Below are positions 1,236 to 14,473 of a stretch of DNA of 22,933 nucleotides, piece by piece. The notes beneath the pieces are model-generated. The model was not told the origin of the DNA. It ran no database searches and saw nothing but the letters and a program-made list of their open reading frames with translations. This DNA comes from a virus (taxonomy: Duplodnaviria; Heunggongvirae; Uroviricota; Caudoviricetes). Where the stretch lies: IMG/VR virus record IMGVR_UViG_2609459824_000003, positions 1-22,933 of that record, one strand, 5' to 3'. Within the stretch, counting starts at the first letter, position 1; every line of letters begins with the position of its first letter. A program made the position numbers and the translations under genes.

Positions 1236-3173
1236 GTGACTCTTAAACGGGCCTGTTCCCTGCTGACGGTGAAATCCTTCAGTGAGGATGAACGGGTGAT
1301 CACCGGGATTGCGTCAACGCCTTCTCCGGATCGGGATGGTGACATCCTGGAGCCGGAGGGCGCGGAGTTTGGCAGTGCGATCCCGTTTCTCTGGCAGCAT
1401 GACCATTCCCGCCCGGTGGGGCAGTGTACGGTGCGCCGGGTCAGCGAAGGGCTGGAAATCACGGCAACACTGGTGAAGCCCGTACCGGATATGCCGTCGC
1501 AACTGGCTGCCCGGCTGGATGAGGTCTGGGCGGCCATTAAGACCGGGCTGGTCAGGGGGCTGTCCGTGGGCTTCCGTCCCCATGAATACACCTTTCTGGA
1601 CGGAGGCGGACTGCATTTTCTGCGCTGGGAACTGATGGAGGTGTCTGCCGTCACCGTGCCCGCGAATGCGGAATGCACCATCCGGACCATTAAATCTTAC
1701 GACCGCCCGTTTTCTGCCGCGTCCGGCAACCGGAAACCGGTGGTGAAAATCGCATCTTCTGCCGGCGCTGCGGCACAGTCAACAACCGTTTTTCATAAGG
1801 AAAAGACCATAATGAATATTGGCGAACAGATTAAAAGTTTTGAAAACAAGCGTGCAGCGCTGGCAGCCTCCCTTGAGGAGGTCATGACCAAAGCCGCAGA
1901 GGAAGGGCGCACGCTGGATGTGGAGGAGGAAGAGCATTACGACAACACCGCAGCGGAAATCCGTCAGGTGGATGCGCACCTGAAGCGCCTGCGTGAACTG
2001 GAAGCCGGTAAGGCCGCCACGGCGCAGCCGGTGAAACAGGCCGGTAACGGGAATGTGGCCGCGGTGGCTTCTGCGCCGGTGATCCGTGTGGAGCAGAAAC
2101 TGGATAAGGGGATTGGCTTCGCCCGCTTTGCCAAATCGCTGGCTGCGGCTAAAGGCGTCCGATCTGAAGCCCTGGAAGTGGCCCGTCGTCAGTATCCGGA
2201 TGACAGTCGTCTGCATCATGTCCTGAAATCGGCAGTGGGCGCGGGGACCACCACGGATCCGCAGTGGGCAGGCAGCCTGTCTGAATATCAGGAATACGCA
2301 CAGGACTTTATTGATTACCTGCGTCCGCAGACCATTATCGGGCGATTTGGTCAGGGCGGGATCCCTGCACTTCGTCAGGTGCCATTCAATATCCGTGTGC
2401 ACGCCCAGGTGTCCGGCGGTGCTGCCGGCTGGGTGGGTGAGGGTAAGGCAAAACCCCTGACGAAGTTTGATTTTGAATCCATCACCTTCAGTCATGCGAA
2501 GGTGTCGGCCATTGCGGTACTGACGGAAGAATTGATCCGTTTTTCCAGTCCGGCTGCTGATGCACTGGTCCGTAATGCGCTGGCGGAAGCGGTGGTGGCG
2601 CGTCTGGATACAGACTTTGTGGACCCGAAAAAAGCCGCAGTGGCAGATGTCTCCCCGGCGTCCATCACCCATGATGTGAAGGGCACGGCATCAACCGGTA
2701 ACCCGGATGCGGATGCAGAGGCTGCGTTTGGACAGTTTGTGGCAGCAAACCTGCAGCCCACCGGTGCGGTCTGGCTGATGTCCAGCACCAATGCCCTGGC
2801 ACTGTCCATGCGTAAAAATGCGCTGGGTCAGAAGGAATACCCGGACATGACCCTGCTGGGTGGCTCCTTCCAGGGGCTGCCGGTGATTGTCTCCCAGTAC
2901 GTGGGTGACCAGCTGGTGCTGGTGAATGCCCCGGATATTTATCTGGCGGATGACGGCGGCGTGGCAGTGGATATGTCCCGCGAGGCATCACTGGAAATGC
3001 AGTCTGAGCCGACCGGCGACAGTACCACGCCGTCCCCGGTGGAGCTGGTTTCCATGTTCCAGACAGGCAGCGTGGCCATCCGTGCGGAGCGCTGGATCAA
3101 CTGGCGTCGTCGCCGTACTGCGGCGGTGGCGGTGATCACCGGAGTGAACTACGGCAGTGCGTCCGGCGGCTGA
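1236..3173 (+). CDS. Fused prohead protease (HK97 gp4/S78-like) - scaffold (delta-domain-like coiled coil) - major capsid protein (HK97 fold)
   Basis: Continuous 645-codon ORF starting at GTG 1236, 5 nt after AGGAGG. The N-terminal ~165 aa carry prohead-protease motifs (GIASTPSPDRDGDIL...PFLWQHDHSRPVG...GLSVGF...EVSAVTVPAN). An in-frame ATG at 1812 preceded by AAGGAAAAG starts a coiled-coil segment (MNIGEQIKSFENKRAALAASLEEV...) followed by a capsid-like body. Confidence 0.8.
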   Translation: MTLKRACSLLTVKSFSEDERVITGIASTPSPDRDGDILEPEGAEFGSAIPFLWQHDHSRPVGQCTVRRVSEGLEITATLVKPVPDMPSQLAARLDEVWAAIKTGLVRGLSVGFRPHEYTFLDGGGLHFLRWELMEVSAVTVPANAECTIRTIKSYDRPFSAASGNRKPVVKIASSAGAAAQSTTVFHKEKTIMNIGEQIKSFENKRAALAASLEEVMTKAAEEGRTLDVEEEEHYDNTAAEIRQVDAHLKRLRELEAGKAATAQPVKQAGNGNVAAVASAPVIRVEQKLDKGIGFARFAKSLAAAKGVRSEALEVARRQYPDDSRLHHVLKSAVGAGTTTDPQWAGSLSEYQEYAQDFIDYLRPQTIIGRFGQGGIPALRQVPFNIRVHAQVSGGAAGWVGEGKAKPLTKFDFESITFSHAKVSAIAVLTEELIRFSSPAADALVRNALAEAVVARLDTDFVDPKKAAVADVSPASITHDVKGTASTGNPDADAEAAFGQFVAANLQPTGAVWLMSSTNALALSMRKNALGQKEYPDMTLLGGSFQGLPVIVSQYVGDQLVLVNAPDIYLADDGGVAVDMSREASLEMQSEPTGDSTTPSPVELVSMFQTGSVAIRAERWINWRRRRTAAVAVITGVNYGSASGG

Positions 3174-3217: not shown

Positions 3218-3439
3218 ATGGCAAAGATCCGATATCTGCAGGGCACGCATGATGCCCGGGCCGGGGATATCCGTGATGTGGCACAGCCGTGTGCGGAGGT
3301 GCTGGTTCGCCTGGGAAAGGCGGAGTACATCACGGTGCGACGTCCGGCAGGTCAGAAAAAGAAACGTGATGCGGAGCATGGCGAATGTGGAACCTTTTAC
3401 GGCGAACCCGAAAAAACCAGAAATCAGGACGTGACGTAA
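3218..3439 (+). CDS. Hypothetical small basic protein (73 aa) between capsid and portal genes
   Basis: ATG-initiated ORF filling the capsid-portal gap. It has no convincing Shine-Dalgarno and I recognise no family. Its TAA stop (3437-3439) overlaps a candidate GTG start (3436) in the portal frame. Confidence 0.25.
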   Translation: MAKIRYLQGTHDARAGDIRDVAQPCAEVLVRLGKAEYITVRRPAGQKKKRDAEHGECGTFYGEPEKTRNQDVT

Positions 3440-4749
3440 GAGAGGCGGGCTGGACCAGCCTGTTTCAGGCGGTGGCTGAGCCCTTTTCCGGCGCCTGGCA
3501 GCAGGGCGTGAAAGCCGATCCTGAAGCCGTCCTCTCCTTTCATGCGGTGTTTGCATGTATTTCGCTGATATCCCAGGATATCGCCAAAATGCGGCTGCGT
3601 CTTATGCAGACGGATGCGCATGGGATACGCAGGGAAACGCGCCGGGGGGATATTGCCCGCCTCTGTCGTCGTCCCAACGCCCAGCAGAACCGCATCCAGT
3701 TTTTTGAACTGTGGCTGAACGCCAAACTGCGTCATGGCAATACGGTGGTGCTGAAAATCCGTAATGCCCGGGGGCAGATCAAAGAACTGCGTATTCTGGA
3801 CTGGAGCCGGGTTGAACCTCTGGTGGCGGATGACGGCGAGGTGTTCTACCGCATCACGCCGGACCGGAACTGCGGGATCACGGAGGCGGTGACGGTGCCT
3901 GCCCGGGAAGTGATCCACGACCGGTTTAACTGTTTTTTTCATCCGCTTATAGGATTGCCGCCGGTGTATGCCGCCGGGCTGGCGGCCACGCAGGGGCATC
4001 ATATTCAGGAAAATTCGACGTCTTTTTTCAGAAATGGCGGCAGGCCGTCCGGGGTGATTGAGATCCCCGGCAGTATTACGGAAGAAAATGCGAAAAAACT
4101 GAAGAGCAACTGGGACAGCGGGTATACAGGCGAAAATGCGGGGAAAACGGCCATTCTGAGCAACGGGGCAAAATACAACCCCACGACGTTTTCACCTGTG
4201 GATGCGCAGACGGTGGAACAACTGAAGATGACCGCTGAAATTGTCTGTTCGGTGTTCCGTGTCCCGGCCTACAAGATTGGCGTGGGACAACCGCCTTCCA
4301 GTGACAACGTGGAGGCGCTGGAGCAGCAGTATTATTCCCAGTGCCTGCAGACGCTGATTGAGTCCATTGAACTGTTACTGGATGAGGCGCTGGAAACGGG
4401 GGAAAACGAGAGTACAGAATTTGATGTCACCACGCTGCTGAGAATGGACAGTGAGCGGCGCATGAAAACGCTGGGGGATGCGGTGAAAAATACGCTTCTC
4501 ACGCCCAATGAGGCCCGTAAACGGGAGAACCTGCCGCCCCTGGCCGGCGGTGATGCACTGTATCTTCAGCAGCAGAACTACAGTCTGGAGGCGCTGTCCC
4601 GTCGTGATGCCCGTGAGGATCCGTTCGCGTCTGCCGGGAAAACAGTTTCATCACAGCTGCCTGACGGCGCATCTGACGGTAATAAGGCAATCAGTGAAAC
4701 AGAGCATGATGCGGTGAAAGCGATGTTCAGGGGGATACTGAGAAAATGA
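3385..4749 (+). CDS. Phage portal protein (HK97-family)
   Basis: Translation has portal signatures: SFFRNGGRPSGVIEIPG, YTGENAGKTAILSNGAKY, TAEIVCSVFRVPAYKIGVG. The start is uncertain: first ATG at 3385, alternative GTG at 3436. The stop overlaps the next gene's start (ATGA at 4746-4749). Confidence 0.8.
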   Translation: MWNLLRRTRKNQKSGRDVREAGWTSLFQAVAEPFSGAWQQGVKADPEAVLSFHAVFACISLISQDIAKMRLRLMQTDAHGIRRETRRGDIARLCRRPNAQQNRIQFFELWLNAKLRHGNTVVLKIRNARGQIKELRILDWSRVEPLVADDGEVFYRITPDRNCGITEAVTVPAREVIHDRFNCFFHPLIGLPPVYAAGLAATQGHHIQENSTSFFRNGGRPSGVIEIPGSITEENAKKLKSNWDSGYTGENAGKTAILSNGAKYNPTTFSPVDAQTVEQLKMTAEIVCSVFRVPAYKIGVGQPPSSDNVEALEQQYYSQCLQTLIESIELLLDEALETGENESTEFDVTTLLRMDSERRMKTLGDAVKNTLLTPNEARKRENLPPLAGGDALYLQQQNYSLEALSRRDAREDPFASAGKTVSSQLPDGASDGNKAISETEHDAVKAMFRGILRK

Positions 4750-6455
4750 CGGAACGGGAACTGTCCATTATTCGTGCACTGGGAGAAGAATTCTCCACAG
4801 TGCTGGCGGATTTACAGCGCACATTTGAGGGGAAGATGGCCTCGCAGGCACAAGCGTTTGAAGAGAAACTGACTTCCCTGTCGGCGGTATTACAGAAGCA
4901 TGTGACGGTGGATGAGGTGCGTCCGGTTCTGCAGGCGATGGTGGATGACGCTGTGGGGGCCATTCCGGTACCGCGTGATGGTCGTGATTATGATCCGGAT
5001 GTACTGCAGCAGGCGGTGAATGATGCGGTCGCAAATATTCCGCAGCCGGCGGACGGTAAAAGTCTCACCCCGGATGATGTGCGTCCGATGCTTGAACAGA
5101 TGGTGAAGGAGGCTGTAAGCCATATCCCTGTTCCGCGCGACGGTCGTGACTATGATCCCGATGTTCTGCAGAAGGCGGTGAATGATGCGGTCGCAAATAT
5201 TCCGCAGCCGGGGGACGGTAAAAGTCTCACCCCGGATGATGTGCGTCCGATGCTTGAACAGATGGTGAAGGAGGCTGTAAGCCATATCCCTGTTCCGCGT
5301 GATGGTCGTGACTACGATCCGGAAGTACTGCAGAAGGCGGTGAATGATGCGGTCGCAAATATTCCGCAGCCGGGGGACGGTAAAAGTCTCACCCCGGATG
5401 ATGTGCGTCCGATGCTTGAACAGATGGTGAAGGAGGCTGTAAGCCATATCCCTGTTCCGCGCGACGGTCGTGACTATGATCCCGATGTTCTGCAGAAGGC
5501 GGTGAATGATGCGGTCGCAAATATTCCGCAGCCGGCGGACGGTAAAAGTCTCACCCCGGATGATGTGCGTCCGATGCTTGAACAGATGGTGAAGGAGGCT
5601 GTAAGCCATATCCCTGTTCCGCGCGACGGTCGTGACTATGATCCCGATGTTCTGCAGAAGGCGGTGAATGATGCGGTCGCAAATATTCCGCAGCCGGCGG
5701 ACGGTAAAAGTCTCACCCCGGATGATGTGCGTCCGATGCTTGAACAGATGGTGAAGGAGGCTGTAAGCCATATCCCTGTTCCGCGCGACGGTCGTGACTA
5801 TGATCCCGATGTTCTGCAGAAGGCGGTGAATGATGCGGTCGCAAATATTCCGCAGCCGGCAGACGGTAAAAGTCTCACCCCGGATGATGTGCGTCCGATG
5901 CTTGAACAGATGGTGAAGGAGGCGGTAAGCCATATTCATGTTCCGCGTGATGGTCGTGACTACGATCCGGATGTTCTGCAGAAGGCGGTTCTGGATGCGG
6001 TGAGTGCCCTGCCGGCTCCGCAGGACGGGCGTGATGCCACGGCTCTGGAAATACTCCCCGCCATTGACGATCAAAAATCCTTTCCCCGGGGCACGTATGC
6101 CACACACCAGGGCGGACTCTGGCGGGCGTATGAAAAAACGCACGGGATGCGGGGATGGGAATGCCTGGTTGACGGGGTGGCGGATATTGACGTCAGCATG
6201 ACGGGTGAGCGGTTGTTCTCTGTGGTGGTCCGGCAGAGCAGTGGCCAGCGTACGGAAAAAACATTTTCCCTGCCGGTGATGCTCTACCGCGGTGTGTTCA
6301 GAGCCGGTGAAACCTACCACCCCGGCGATACGGTGACGTGGGGGGGCTCGCTGTGGCACTGCAACAGTATGACCGAAGATAAACCCGGAGAAGCTCATTC
6401 ATCAGCCTGGACCCTGGCGGCAAAACGTGGGCGGGATGCAGGAGGCGGAAAATGA
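4746..6455 (+). CDS. Structural-module protein of unknown function with seven tandem 54-aa repeats
   Basis: 569-aa ORF translationally coupled to portal (ATGA overlap). It has a coiled-coil-like N-terminus, seven copies of a 54-aa unit (VRPMLEQMVKEAVSHIPVPRDGRDYDPDVLQKAVNDAVANIPQPADGKSLTPDD) and a ~140-aa Trp/Gly-rich C-terminal domain. Confidence 0.8.
   Translation: MTERELSIIRALGEEFSTVLADLQRTFEGKMASQAQAFEEKLTSLSAVLQKHVTVDEVRPVLQAMVDDAVGAIPVPRDGRDYDPDVLQQAVNDAVANIPQPADGKSLTPDDVRPMLEQMVKEAVSHIPVPRDGRDYDPDVLQKAVNDAVANIPQPGDGKSLTPDDVRPMLEQMVKEAVSHIPVPRDGRDYDPEVLQKAVNDAVANIPQPGDGKSLTPDDVRPMLEQMVKEAVSHIPVPRDGRDYDPDVLQKAVNDAVANIPQPADGKSLTPDDVRPMLEQMVKEAVSHIPVPRDGRDYDPDVLQKAVNDAVANIPQPADGKSLTPDDVRPMLEQMVKEAVSHIPVPRDGRDYDPDVLQKAVNDAVANIPQPADGKSLTPDDVRPMLEQMVKEAVSHIHVPRDGRDYDPDVLQKAVLDAVSALPAPQDGRDATALEILPAIDDQKSFPRGTYATHQGGLWRAYEKTHGMRGWECLVDGVADIDVSMTGERLFSVVVRQSSGQRTEKTFSLPVMLYRGVFRAGETYHPGDTVTWGGSLWHCNSMTEDKPGEAHSSAWTLAAKRGRDAGGGK
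4917..6050 (+). repeat. Tandem array of 7 x 162-bp direct repeats, in frame within the CDS
   Basis: The motif GTGCGTCC recurs at 4917, 5079, 5241, 5403, 5565, 5727 and 5889, exactly 162 bp apart. The six central copies are nearly identical at the nucleotide level; the first and last are diverged. Each unit is an internal duplication of a ~27-aa sub-repeat (IP-x-P-x-DG...PD-x-V...AV). Confidence 0.9.
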
Positions 6456-6778
6456 CGGCATTACTGACACTGGAAGAGATCAAGGCACATCTGCGTGTCG
6501 ACCATGACGCGGATGATGACATGCTGATGGACAAGGTTCGTCAGGCTACCGCCGTGCTGCTGGCCTACATTCAGGGCAGCCGGGATAAAGTGATCCGTGA
6601 GGACGGTGAACTGATCCCGGGCGAGGCATTAACCCGGATGAAGGGGGCTGCCATGCGACTGACCGGGATGCTGTACCGGAATCCGGATCTTGCGGAGCGG
6701 GAAGAACTGCTTCAGGGGGAGCTGCCGTTTTCTGTTTCCGTGCTGATTTACGATTTGCGTTGTCCGACGGTGTTATGA
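6452..6778 (+). CDS. Head-tail connector protein (gp6-like)
   Basis: ATGA overlap with the upstream gene. N-terminus LTLEEIKAHLRVDHDADDDMLMDKV is the characteristic start of gp6-like connector proteins. Size 108 aa. Confidence 0.7.
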   Translation: MTALLTLEEIKAHLRVDHDADDDMLMDKVRQATAVLLAYIQGSRDKVIREDGELIPGEALTRMKGAAMRLTGMLYRNPDLAEREELLQGELPFSVSVLIYDLRCPTVL

Positions 6779-7581: not shown

Positions 7582-7922
7582 CGGAGGCGGATTTGTATCC
7601 TCATCTGGCGCATCTTGCCGGCGGGCAGGGGTACCCGTATGTGGTCCCCCTGCTGGATGGCAGGCCGTCGGTGGCGCTTCCGTGGGTGGTTTTCAGCCTG
7701 ATTTCATCGGTGTCAGCGGACGTGATGGGCGGGCAGGCGGAGTCCTCAGTGTCGGTGCAGATAGACGTTTATGCCGGGACTGTGACGCAGGCGCGTCAGA
7801 TACGTCAGGACGCCCGTGAAGCCATAATGCTGCTGGCCCCGGGATCCGTCAGTGAAATGCAGGACTATATTCCGGAAAACCGCTGTTACCGTGCAACCCT
7901 GGAGTTTCAGGTCACGGTGTGA
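7578..7922 (+). CDS. Putative tail completion / terminator protein
   Basis: ATGA-coupled 114-aa ORF between the gp10-like gene and the major tail protein gene. Assignment is by position and size only. Confidence 0.5.
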   Translation: MTEADLYPHLAHLAGGQGYPYVVPLLDGRPSVALPWVVFSLISSVSADVMGGQAESSVSVQIDVYAGTVTQARQIRQDAREAIMLLAPGSVSEMQDYIPENRCYRATLEFQVTV

Positions 7923-7949
7923 CTTTTTCTTTTTTCTACAAAACCATAC

Positions 7950-7970
7950 CCCGCCGCGTGCGGGTTTTTT
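7950..7970 (+). terminator. Intrinsic-terminator-like hairpin upstream of the major tail protein gene
   Basis: CCCGC (7950-7954), loop CGCGT, GCGGG (7960-7964), then TTTTTT (7965-7970). Followed by RBS CAGGAGG and ATG at 7987. Confidence 0.5.
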
Positions 7971-7986
7971 ATTATCAGGAGGCAGA

Positions 7987-8703
7987 ATGTCTGCTTTGTA
8001 TGAACGCTCACAGCTGACGCAGGTGATGATTTCATCTGCCCCGGCGACTGCTGAAACTATGGATAAGGCGGAATATCTGCGCCTGGATTGCACCATCAAG
8101 GAAGTCCAGTTCACCGCCGGTCAGAAACAGGATATTGATGTGACCACGCTCTGCTCCACCGAGCAGGAGAACATCAACGGTCTGGGGGCGTCGTCTGAGA
8201 TTTCCATGTCGGGTAATTTTTATCTGAATCAGGCCCAGAACGCCCTGCGTGATGCCTATGACAATGACGCGTTGTATGCGTTTAAGGTGCTGTTTCCGTC
8301 CGGTAAGGGCTTTAAGTTCCTGGCGGAAGTGCGTCAGCACACCTGGTCATCCGGTACCAACGGCGTGGTGGCAGCAACGTTTTCACTGCGTATGAAAGGC
8401 AAACCGGTGTCCTTTGTGGTACCGCTGGCGTTTGTGAAAAATCTGGATAAAACACTTACCGTGAATACAGGTGCGCTGCTGACAATGTCAGTCAGTGCCA
8501 ACGGGGGAACGCCGCCGTATAAATACGCCTGGAAGAAGGATGGTCAGCCGGTTGACGGGCAGACGACAGACACCTTCAGTAAGCCAGGAGCGCAGTCCGC
8601 TGATGCGGGGAAATATACCTGCGTGGTGACCGATTCGGCAGAGAAAGCACAGAGTGTGACGTCTGTTGAATGCACCGTGACAGTGAGCGCAGCCGCCGGA
8701 TAA
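7987..8703 (+). CDS. Major tail protein with C-terminal Ig-like domain
   Basis: The ORF-track start at 7852 would read through the terminator; the ATG at 7987 has a proper RBS (CAGGAGG). The C-terminal ~80 aa show an Ig-like pattern (YKYAWKKDGQPVDG...ADAGKYTCVVTD...VECTVTV). Position is directly upstream of the chaperone pair. Confidence 0.8.
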   Translation: MSALYERSQLTQVMISSAPATAETMDKAEYLRLDCTIKEVQFTAGQKQDIDVTTLCSTEQENINGLGASSEISMSGNFYLNQAQNALRDAYDNDALYAFKVLFPSGKGFKFLAEVRQHTWSSGTNGVVAATFSLRMKGKPVSFVVPLAFVKNLDKTLTVNTGALLTMSVSANGGTPPYKYAWKKDGQPVDGQTTDTFSKPGAQSADAGKYTCVVTDSAEKAQSVTSVECTVTVSAAAG

Positions 8704-13021: not shown

Positions 13022-13719
13022 TGCAGGATATTCGCGAAGAAAGTCTGAACGAGTCGGTTAAGTCAGAGCAGTCACCGCGGGTGGTACTCTGGGAAATCGA
13101 CCTGACGGTACAGGGCGGTGAGCGGTATTTTTTCTGTAATGAGCTGAATGAAAAAGGGGAGCCGGTCACCTGGCAGGGGCGGCAATATCAGGCATACCCG
13201 ATTGACGGCAGCGGTTTTGAGATGAGCGGGAAGGGCAGCAGTGCCAGACCGTCGCTGACGGTGTCCAATCTGTTCGGTCTGGTCACCGGGATGGCGGAAG
13301 ACCTGCAGAGTCTGGTGGGGGCCACGGTGGTCCGCCGCCGGGTGTATGCCCGTTTTCTGGATGCGGTGAATTTCGTTGCGGGCAATCCGGAGGCGGACCC
13401 GGAGCAGGAGCTGAGTGACCGCTGGGTGGTGGAGCAGATGTCGCAGCTGACAGCCATGACGGCCTCGTTTGTGCTGGCTACACCGACCGAGACGGATGGG
13501 GCGCTGTTTCCCGGTCGCATCATGCTGGCGAACACCTGTATGTGGGATTACCGGGGAGATGAATGCGGGTATAACGGTCCTGCGGTGGCGGATGAGTTCG
13601 ACAACCCCACCACGGATATCCGTAAGGACAGATGCAGCAAGTGCATGCGCGGGTGTGAACTGCGCAGGAATGTCGGCAATTTTGGCGGTTTCCTTTCCAT
13701 TAATAAACTTTCGCAGTAA
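13021..13719 (+). CDS. L: Minor tail tip protein L
   Basis: TGATG overlap with M. Translation MQDIREESLNE...VVLWEIDLT...GGERYFFCNE matches lambda gpL. The C-terminal Cys cluster (CMWDYRGDECGY...CSKCMRGC) corresponds to the gpL Fe-S cluster ligands. Confidence 0.9.
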   Translation: MQDIREESLNESVKSEQSPRVVLWEIDLTVQGGERYFFCNELNEKGEPVTWQGRQYQAYPIDGSGFEMSGKGSSARPSLTVSNLFGLVTGMAEDLQSLVGATVVRRRVYARFLDAVNFVAGNPEADPEQELSDRWVVEQMSQLTAMTASFVLATPTETDGALFPGRIMLANTCMWDYRGDECGYNGPAVADEFDNPTTDIRKDRCSKCMRGCELRRNVGNFGGFLSINKLSQ

Positions 13720-13729
13720 ATCCCGGTTT

Positions 13730-14473
13730 ATGACACAGACTGAATCAGCGATTCTGGCGCATGCCCGGCGGTGTGCGCCTGCGGAGTCGTGCGGCTTCGT
13801 GATAAGCACGCCGGAGGGGGAGTGGTATATCCCTTGTGTGAATATTTCTGCAGAGCCGGAGGCGTATTTTCGTATCGCACCGGAAGACTGGCTGCGGGCA
13901 GAGATGCAGGGGGAGATTGTGGCACTGGTCCACAGTCATCCCGGTGGGCTGCCCTGGCTGAGCGAGGCTGACCGGCGGCTGCAGATAAAAAGCGCACTGC
14001 CCTGGTGGCTGGTCTGCCGGGGTGACATTCACAAATTCCGCTGTGTGCCACATCTGACAGGACGGCGCTTTGAGCACGGGGTGACGGACTGTTACACGCT
14101 GTTCCGGGATGCTTATCATCTGGCGGGGACTGAAATGCCGGATTTTCATCGCGAGGATGACTGGTGGCGCAACGGTCAGAACCTTTACCTGGACAATATG
14201 GCGGTCACCGGCTTTTACCGGGTGCCCCTGTCCTCTGCACAGGCGGGCGATATTCTGCTGTGCTGCTTTGGTGCTTCGGTACCGAACCATGCCGCCATTT
14301 ACTGCGGCAACGGTGAGCTGCTTCACCATCTGCCTGAACAACTGAGTAAACGGGAGAGGTATTCCGAAAAATGGCAACGACGAACGCATTCTGTCTGGCG
14401 TCACCGCCACTGGCACGCATCTGCCTTCACGGGGATTTACAACGATTTGGCCGCCGCCTCAGCCTGTATGTGA
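13730..14473 (+). CDS. K: Tail tip assembly protein K (JAB/MPN + NlpC/P60 domains)
   Basis: True start is ATG 13730 (MTQTESAILAHARRCAP..., as in lambda gpK), not the ORF-track start at 13469. JAMM motif H-x-H-x7-S-x2-D is present (HSHPGGLPWLSEAD, 13931-13972). NlpC/P60 catalytic Cys context VTDCYTLF at 14090-14092. Confidence 0.9.
   Translation: MTQTESAILAHARRCAPAESCGFVISTPEGEWYIPCVNISAEPEAYFRIAPEDWLRAEMQGEIVALVHSHPGGLPWLSEADRRLQIKSALPWWLVCRGDIHKFRCVPHLTGRRFEHGVTDCYTLFRDAYHLAGTEMPDFHREDDWWRNGQNLYLDNMAVTGFYRVPLSSAQAGDILLCCFGASVPNHAAIYCGNGELLHHLPEQLSKRERYSEKWQRRTHSVWRHRHWHASAFTGIYNDLAAASACM

Follow-up and report, generated by a model that had tools for sequence, protein, structure and literature searches.

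A length-variable tandem-repeat protein encoded beside the portal gene of a lambda-tailed, HK97-headed Escherichia coli prophage

In P22-type phages the portal barrel is a C-terminal alpha-helical extension of gp1 that reaches into the capsid. SPP1 gp7 and Mu gpF are thought to bind the portal, at low copy in the head, and to be non-essential but helpful for infection. Accessory domains of phage structural proteins can also be added by changes of reading frame, as with the immunoglobulin (Ig)-like domains attached via programmed frameshifts. Here we analyse a gene for a 569-amino-acid (aa) repeat protein that lies directly after the portal gene and directly before the gene of the head-tail adaptor Ad1, in IMG/VR virus record IMGVR_UViG_2609459824_000003. 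The whole stretch analysed (positions 1 to 22,933 of that record, 22,933 nucleotides (nt), hereafter the window) is the late region of a lambda-tailed, HK97-headed E. coli prophage, as recognised from its open reading frames (ORFs) and from Pfam and PHROGs matches. A search of a literature library found no study of this protein, and there is neither a characterised function nor a solved structure for the whole protein.

The ORF at 4746-6455 is a genuine, separately translated late gene, made in step with portal and Ad1. The features of the window that bear on it are these:

3385..4749, plus strand: HK97-family portal gene, 454 aa, ending in KAMFRGILRK and the stop (PF04860, E=1.5e-81; phrog_2271 over positions 1-451)
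4730..4734, plus strand: homopolymer of five G (G5) near the end of the portal gene, from alignment with strains 350 and EC958
4746..6455, plus strand: portal-adjacent repeat protein gene, an ORF with ATG start (569 aa, 62 kDa, isoelectric point (pI) 4.75)
4752..4895, plus strand: single long N-terminal alpha-helix, aa 3-50 (48 residues), predicted by AlphaFold2
4902..6011, plus strand: repeat array, made of a half-unit (4902-4961), six 162-bp units (4962-5933) and a half-unit (5934-6011)
6012..6452, plus strand: conserved C-terminal domain, with a predicted all-beta core at about 6096-6422
6452..6778, plus strand: head-tail adaptor Ad1, gp6-like (PF05135, phrog_40)

The ATG of the repeat gene (4746-4748) overlaps the portal stop TGA (4747-4749), and its own stop (6453-6455) overlaps the Ad1 ATG (6452-6454), each time as ATGA, with GGAGG 6 nt upstream of the Ad1 start. 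An earlier note on this DNA, made from its letters alone, had taken the ORF for a separate gene translationally coupled to portal, and this stands: the layout is the conserved, ancestral one in relatives (see below), and the start M-T-E-R-E-L follows the pattern M(T/N)EREL that is kept in stand-alone homologues. Of the sites that vary among the repeat units, most are third codon positions of the plus frame, which marks that frame as the coding one. For this reason, and because the plus frame is conserved in distant homologues, we rejected a long antisense ORF (4890..6398, minus strand, 502 aa), which looks like a by-product of the repeat, the unit being free of stop codons in that frame. The 569-aa product matched neither PF04860 nor TIGR01537, and where the two genes are fused into one 1021-aa protein the portal profile spans residues 45-388 only; by its profile matches, then, the repeat protein is not a portal protein.

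Many E. coli genomes carry the portal gene and the repeat ORF as a single in-frame fusion, an 861-1021-aa 'phage portal protein' in RefSeq: that of strain 350 has 1021 aa and seven units, that of strain EC958 (sequence type 131, ST131) 861 aa and four units. When the window was aligned with these two, the sole difference at the junction between fused and split alleles was the run at 4730-4734, which has six G (G6) in the fused alleles and five in the window. Among 58 loci the run was G5 in 34, G6 in 23 and GGGGA in one, and for the haplotype of the window the exact G5 65-mer was found in 29 finished genomes, the exact G6 form in 747. Because the flanks of the run are identical to those of G6 loci over 600 nt upstream and 200 nt downstream, the window is either a member of the G6 clade that has lost one G or a sequence with a homopolymer read error. 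If the G was lost from a G6 allele, G5 here restores the ancestral state; even if it is an error, both products as read are the ancestral ones. Fused alleles keep the internal ATG of the repeat gene.

Both states occur in phages and prophages. Phage 2851, which is reportedly infectious, carries the portal fusion, and homologue P0146 (1237 aa) is a portal fusion that was built independently. Split like the window are BP-4795, PPompW phages and many other prophages. Prophage Sp10 of strain Sakai is also split, into ECs1974 (454 aa) and ECs1975 (407 aa); its morphogenetic functions are all conserved, and it is packaged, is transferred to K-12 and lysogenises it (Asadulghani et al., PMC2669165), from which it follows that the split state is functional. 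As a separate observation, the last portal codons of the split frame, just 5' of the coupled start (4735-4745), read ATA CTG AGA AAA and include rare codons, and Sp10 carries, at 40706-40958, a tRNA-Ile (anticodon CAT, ileZ type) and a tRNA-Arg (TCT) that read those rare portal codons; this may be coincidence, or a modulation of the coupling.

The order of events is indicated by more distant relatives, for which we examined IMG/VR loci, Salmonella phage FSL SP-016, Rhizobium phage RHph_X2_26 and prophages of Variovorax, Pseudomonas and Morganella. At 52-65% identity in the C-terminal domain, these keep TerL, protease/capsid, portal, repeat gene and Ad1, with portal and repeat gene separate and overlapping. 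Their portals end in KAM(L/F)RG(L/I)LxK and a stop, the same ending that the G5 frame gives in the window, and their downstream genes start M-N-E-R-E-L. The G-run is absent from their junctions, which have CGAGGATT, CAGAGGATT or AGAGGGTTT instead. Since distant relatives are split, the portal C-terminus is conserved among them and most family members stand alone, the two-gene layout is, on comparison of the sequences, ancestral, and the fused 'portal protein' a derived form that arose by a +1 insertion. Two other accounts of the junction were set aside. A one-off frameshift was rejected as a general explanation of the split state, and a sequencing error may apply to the window sequence alone. 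A programmed -1 frameshift at A-GGG-GGA, followed by rare AUA and AGA codons, would yield precisely the fused protein again; it was rejected because the G-run is not conserved in the distant relatives. The Prokaryotic Genome Annotation Pipeline (PGAP) labels the G5 allele of the closest genome a 'frameshifted' pseudogene, and GenBank submitters do likewise; with the split layout ancestral, the PGAP call is wrong.

Tandem Repeats Finder reported a single array for the window as a whole, at 4971-5989, with a period of exactly 162, 6.3 copies, 96% matches, no indels and a score of 1884. Read in the register IPVPRDG, the array consists of the six full units, with pairwise differences of 0-11 of 162 nt and with units 4 and 5 identical, flanked by diverged half-units at aa 53-72 before and aa 397-422 after. 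The seven copies, six of them nearly identical, that had been described earlier are this same array in another register. The unit had also been described as a duplicated module of ~27 aa; the duplication is there, far beyond chance, and the equal halves are not, the sub-modules being about 25 and 29 aa long, each composed of a P-x-P-x-DG linker and a helix.

The array had further been predicted to be a recent expansion, to differ in copy number between near-identical prophages and to give trouble in short-read assemblies, and in all of this the prediction was right. In the 58 loci we counted one unit (1 locus), two (3 loci), three (16), four (28), five (6) and seven (3, including the window), so that four is the most frequent number and the window has seven; apart from one irregular locus with 2.58 units, all length differences were whole 162-bp units. 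With near-identical head-to-tail units whose number differs among close relatives while the frame is kept, the array is a variable-number tandem repeat (VNTR). That the seven-copy length might be an assembly artefact was rejected, because the same length occurs in finished genomes (e.g., E. coli strain 350 and several O157:H7 strains) and lengths differ by multiples of 162 bp. Assemblies do break in the repeat: most of the best matches listed for the ORF are portal proteins marked 'partial', from contigs a few kb long. Cronobacter, Enterobacter and Morganella homologues have their own independent recent amplifications of homologous units; thus length lability is a property of the whole family. 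Independent near-identical arrays, with units of 38-54 aa, were seen in homologues P0289, P0295, P0301, P0300 and P0273 (Cronobacter, Enterobacter, Morganella, Variovorax).

We predicted structures with AlphaFold2 from family alignments, as two monomer models covering residues 1-180 and residues 289-569. The long N-terminal helix was predicted with a local distance difference test score (pLDDT) of 94-98 over aa 1-40 and 87 over aa 41-50; it is the most conserved N-terminal segment among enterobacterial homologues, and on the model it is presumably an attachment or oligomerisation element. The repeat region appears as alternating 17- and 13-residue helices with 12-residue P-x-P-x-DG linkers between them (pLDDT 55-76 in the residues 1-180 model), and the residues 289-569 model repeats the same helix-linker pattern before the beta domain. 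This spacer is acidic (pI 4.5, net charge -27). It contains no collagen-like G-X-Y runs in the window protein, where the linkers show just single DG-x-x remnants; in members from Morganella and Pseudomonas, true runs of this collagen-like G-X-Y kind occupy the linker positions. The modular spacer and the beta-rich C-terminal domain that the earlier note had proposed are thus both present in the models, the latter as an all-beta domain of about 120 aa (about aa 439-558; pLDDT 97-98) that resembles the carbohydrate-binding modules CBM5/12.

The resemblance is partial. Two CBM5/12-like motifs, YATHQGGLWRA and GDTVTWGGSLWHC, lie in the C-terminal domain. The Pfam CBM_5_12 profile (PF02839) scored 20.0 bits over residues 519-541, below its gathering cut-off of 26.2, and some homologues carry a precomputed PF02839 match. 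A Foldseek search of the domain against the PDB gave nothing below E=1e-3 and no whole-domain match; it gave local fold matches, at probability 1.0, to CBM5/12 chitin-binding domains and to phage tail-fibre components. A sequence search of the PDB with the family profile returned nothing beyond weak CBM-like segments. We therefore place the domain with CBM5/12 at the level of local predicted fold only, and regard glycan binding as putative. The domain itself is well kept, with identities of 50-66% across classes, in hosts from Escherichia to Variovorax, and a ratio of nonsynonymous to synonymous substitution rates (dN/dS) of 0.10-0.36, showing purifying selection. Pfam matches of the 569-aa protein to TetR_C_35, FliG_N, Glycos_trans_3N and others of the kind were rejected as spurious, their scores being summed over the repeats with no single stretch passing. 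In enterobacterial members a precomputed match to PF28083 covers N-terminal or repeat sequence.

Related DNA was present in 1246 of the 5426 finished E. coli genomes, about a quarter, with ST131 and O157:H7 among them, and in 93 phage records. Almost all of these records are of long-tailed Shiga-toxin (Stx) or lambdoid phages (2851, BP-4795, YYZ-2008, PPompW); the carriers include long-tailed Stx1, Stx2a and Stx2c phages. When the C-terminal 147 aa served as query in an exhaustive HMMER search, 5508 cluster representatives passed E<=1e-3, 1894 passed E<=1e-10 and 351 passed E<=1e-30. Most of the best 150 representatives stand alone, are 200-500 aa long and carry the domain at their C-terminal end, and only two of the 150 are portal fusions. 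The earlier note had not recognised the family; as far as databases go it is widely present and misnamed 'portal protein', a name that stand-alone members have received by carry-over from the common in-frame fusion. It matches PHROGs 1289, 2271, 8767 and 16748, whose function is unassigned or whose label is 'portal protein', and an NCBIfam search of the 569-aa protein gave no match. Proteins of 405 aa from Cronobacter and Enterobacter called 'gp6-like head-tail connector protein', considered as possible fusions with the Ad1 connector, turned out to be ordinary family members under a wrong name.

Our favoured reading, which we hold tentatively and with somewhat less than even confidence, is that the repeat protein forms a fibre inside the head that is tethered to the portal at the inner crown. 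The N-terminal helix would dock on the portal dodecamer, at its C-terminal crown or tail, and up to 12 chains, possibly as four trimers, would project from the portal into the capsid lumen of the virion. The repeat spacer would be a length-tolerant tether, its length set by the hypervariable 162-bp repeat, and the beta domain would be the working end, binding a ligand that is conserved across Proteobacteria and that could be a phage component, DNA or, should ejection release the protein, peptidoglycan glycan. What suggests an association with the portal is the recurrence of in-frame fusions to its C-terminus, in the E. coli G6 clade and in P0146. The C-terminal domain is strongly conserved across hosts, which argues against its being a host-specific receptor-binding tip, since such tips tend to vary much more. 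In T4, fusions to the portal C-terminus end up within the capsid, and only about half of the positions tolerate them (PMC3012670); by analogy, a portal that is viable when fully fused suggests an extension suited to the lumenal side. Of the candidate roles that the earlier note had named (capsid decoration or cement protein, length-variable head fibre, ejected internal protein), decoration of the capsid surface fits poorly with natural fusions to the portal C-terminus.

Several points weigh against a lumenal position, and much the same points favour a fibre on the outside. The overall predicted architecture, of long helix, segmented helical shaft and CBM5/12-like distal domain, looks like that of an external phage fibre. 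Fold matches in BFVD are mostly to collagen-repeat or tail-fibre proteins, and also to CBM5/12. True collagen-like runs of 5-6 G-X-Y triplets stand at linker positions in homologues P0287 and P0300, and such runs occur in about half of the homologues (58 of 119 next to the C-terminal domain, as G..G..G, and 47 of 119 in the C-terminal tail). The gene stands at the head of the neck gene block, immediately 5' of Ad1, Hc1, gp10-like and gp17. The evidence from fusions is itself open to discount: a +1 slip in G5 beside an ATGA overlap is a very easy mutation, and since the internal ATG is retained, fusions could be near-neutral, tolerated passengers rather than evidence of location; the counts of genomes with fused alleles are moreover inflated by clonal sampling of ST131 and O157:H7. 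A strongly acidic protein within a DNA-filled head is also unusual, and a literature search found no virion proteomics, microscopy or genetics for the repeat protein. The main rival that we weighed is an external neck or collar whisker, in which the N-terminal helix would sit on the portal-adaptor region outside the capsid and a trimeric shaft of variable length would carry a CBM5/12-like domain that binds a surface glycan and aids adsorption, in the manner of T4 fibritin whiskers or of head fibres. The extreme length polymorphism, and the likeness of the C-terminal domain to chitin-binding modules and phage tail-fibre parts, would suit it. We consider it possible but doubtful: the widespread natural fusions to the portal C-terminus, including that of phage 2851, would place the protein inside the head, the domain is conserved from Escherichia to Variovorax in a way that receptor-binding tips are not, and the phage already has a J tip, Lom and a 1008-aa side tail fibre.

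Scaffolding proteins resemble the acidic helical spacer, and a role in assembly only was weighed on that basis: a portal-bound, scaffold-like acidic protein would nucleate the procapsid or recruit the protease-capsid protein, and would be degraded or expelled before or during packaging, leaving mature virions without it. The constant co-occurrence with an S78 protease and an HK97-type capsid gene 5' of portal and the coupling of expression to portal are consistent with this, and fusion to the portal in cis would work equally well. We judge it improbable, given that the capsid protein already has its own protease and delta-like region and that a folded, conserved CBM-like beta domain and a length range of 1-7 units are atypical of scaffolds. 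Less probable still, and to our minds quite unlikely, is that the repeat ORF is simply the C-terminal part of the portal and the window allele a frameshifted pseudogene or homopolymer sequencing error. The identical flanks, the far commoner G6 form of the haplotype, the 'frameshifted' mark on the closest genome and the possibility of a single-base homopolymer error in the window sequence all speak for it; against these, the two genes are apart in all divergent relatives, with G5 both the portal C-terminus and the start M(T/N)EREL regain their conserved form, phage BP-4795 is split and so is Sp10, a prophage that can be transferred, and portal fusions are so few among the best representatives. 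Extending the reading of a lumenal fibre on the portal crown, we can imagine acidic, length-variable internal fibres with a CBM-like end, hitherto overlooked, in HK97-headed siphophages, including the long-tailed Shiga-toxin phages, which would organise or retain the packaged DNA end, or leave with the DNA and bind peptidoglycan; slippage between G5 and G6 would toggle covalent and non-covalent attachment, and the 162-bp VNTR would tune length. This extended picture is speculative; as with the external whisker, we consider it possible but doubtful.

In the rest of the window, upstream of the portal gene lie:

9-1172: large terminase (TerL), cut by the 5' end of the window
1236-3173: fusion of S78 prohead protease and HK97-type capsid protein, 645 aa (Pfam, PHROGs)
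3218-3439: conserved 73-aa ORF (phrog_829; WP_001063099.1, 'hypothetical protein') that overlaps the portal start by 55 nt

The 645-aa capsid protein, encoded 5' of portal, joins the S78 prohead protease, a coiled-coil region and the HK97-type capsid domain; in the Variovorax prophage protease and capsid are separate genes. Capsid likewise comes before portal in every relative examined but Rhizobium phage RHph_X2_26, which has an SGNH hydrolase gene ahead of portal. Downstream of Ad1 come, in order, the neck proteins Hc1, gp10-like and gp17, then the major tail protein, followed by lambda-like G, T, H, M, L, K, I and J and then by Lom and the side tail fibre. The major tail protein (7852-8703) has an Ig-like domain at its end (I-set/Ig_3 matches), and the gpK-like protein (13469-14473) joins JAB and NlpC/P60 domains, as in lambda. 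The closest finished genome, that of E. coli 266917_2, has 99.1% identity to the window; its annotation gives the capsid/protease gene an internal stop and the portal a frameshift, and the capsid gene is intact in the window. In at least ten finished E. coli chromosome records (e.g., NZ_CP026723, NZ_CP054232, NZ_CP145139 and NZ_CM169497) window position 3300 corresponds to record position 3790, which means that those records begin exactly at the start codon of the prophage large terminase; it seems that an automatic tool for re-orientation took phage terL, in place of dnaA, as the point to which it rotated whole chromosomes.

The family is large (the 1894 representatives at E<=1e-10), medically adjacent and misannotated. 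The misannotation is systematic: stand-alone members go under the names 'portal protein' or 'gp6-like connector', and split alleles that are intact carry the flag of a frameshifted pseudogene, which inflates estimates of prophage 'defectiveness', for example in classification of the O157 prophage pool. The fused alleles, as in phage 2851, and the split ones, as in Sp10 and BP-4795, amount to a natural experiment on the role of the protein, and prophages could be typed by the 162-bp VNTR. Should the protein be an internal or ejected component that is tethered to the portal, it would be a new element of the head or ejection machinery in a medically relevant group of phages.

Among described systems, the protein resembles the P22 portal barrel in its proposed position. 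Both would be alpha-helical extensions on the C-terminal, lumenal side of the portal dodecamer, with a length that varies between relatives, and in G6 alleles the repeat protein is literally part of the portal polypeptide. The P22 barrel is a continuous coiled coil, whereas here short helices are predicted to alternate with Pro/Gly/Asp linkers, the gene is ancestrally separate and a folded beta domain stands at the end; Pfam, Foldseek and the PDB profile search gave no sequence or fold match to the barrel. With SPP1 gp7 and Mu gpF only the position of the gene, directly after the portal gene, is common. The 569-aa protein had no match to the MuF domain (PF04233) in Pfam or PHROGs, and MuF proteins are basic and DNA-binding whereas this one is acidic, with a repeat spacer and a CBM-like domain. 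The whiskers of T4 (fibritin, wac) offer the same general design, of a helical fibre in segments that is attached by its N-terminus and has a small folding or binding domain at its C-terminus, encoded by a gene that adjoins neck genes; neither Pfam nor Foldseek gave a fibritin or foldon match, and the natural fusions to the portal C-terminus argue here against an external position. Unlike the CBM5/12 modules of Serratia ChiB and the Streptomyces ChiC chitin-binding domain (ChBD), the module here scores below the Pfam cut-off and is embedded in a domain of ~120 aa. As with the Ig-like add-ons, an accessory module is attached or not according to the reading frame at a short slippery site, but here the switch lies in the DNA (G5 vs G6), at a run that is not conserved in distant relatives. 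By analogy with these systems, the repeat protein may work most like the P22 portal barrel or SPP1 gp7 if it is lumenal, or like the T4 whiskers if it is external.

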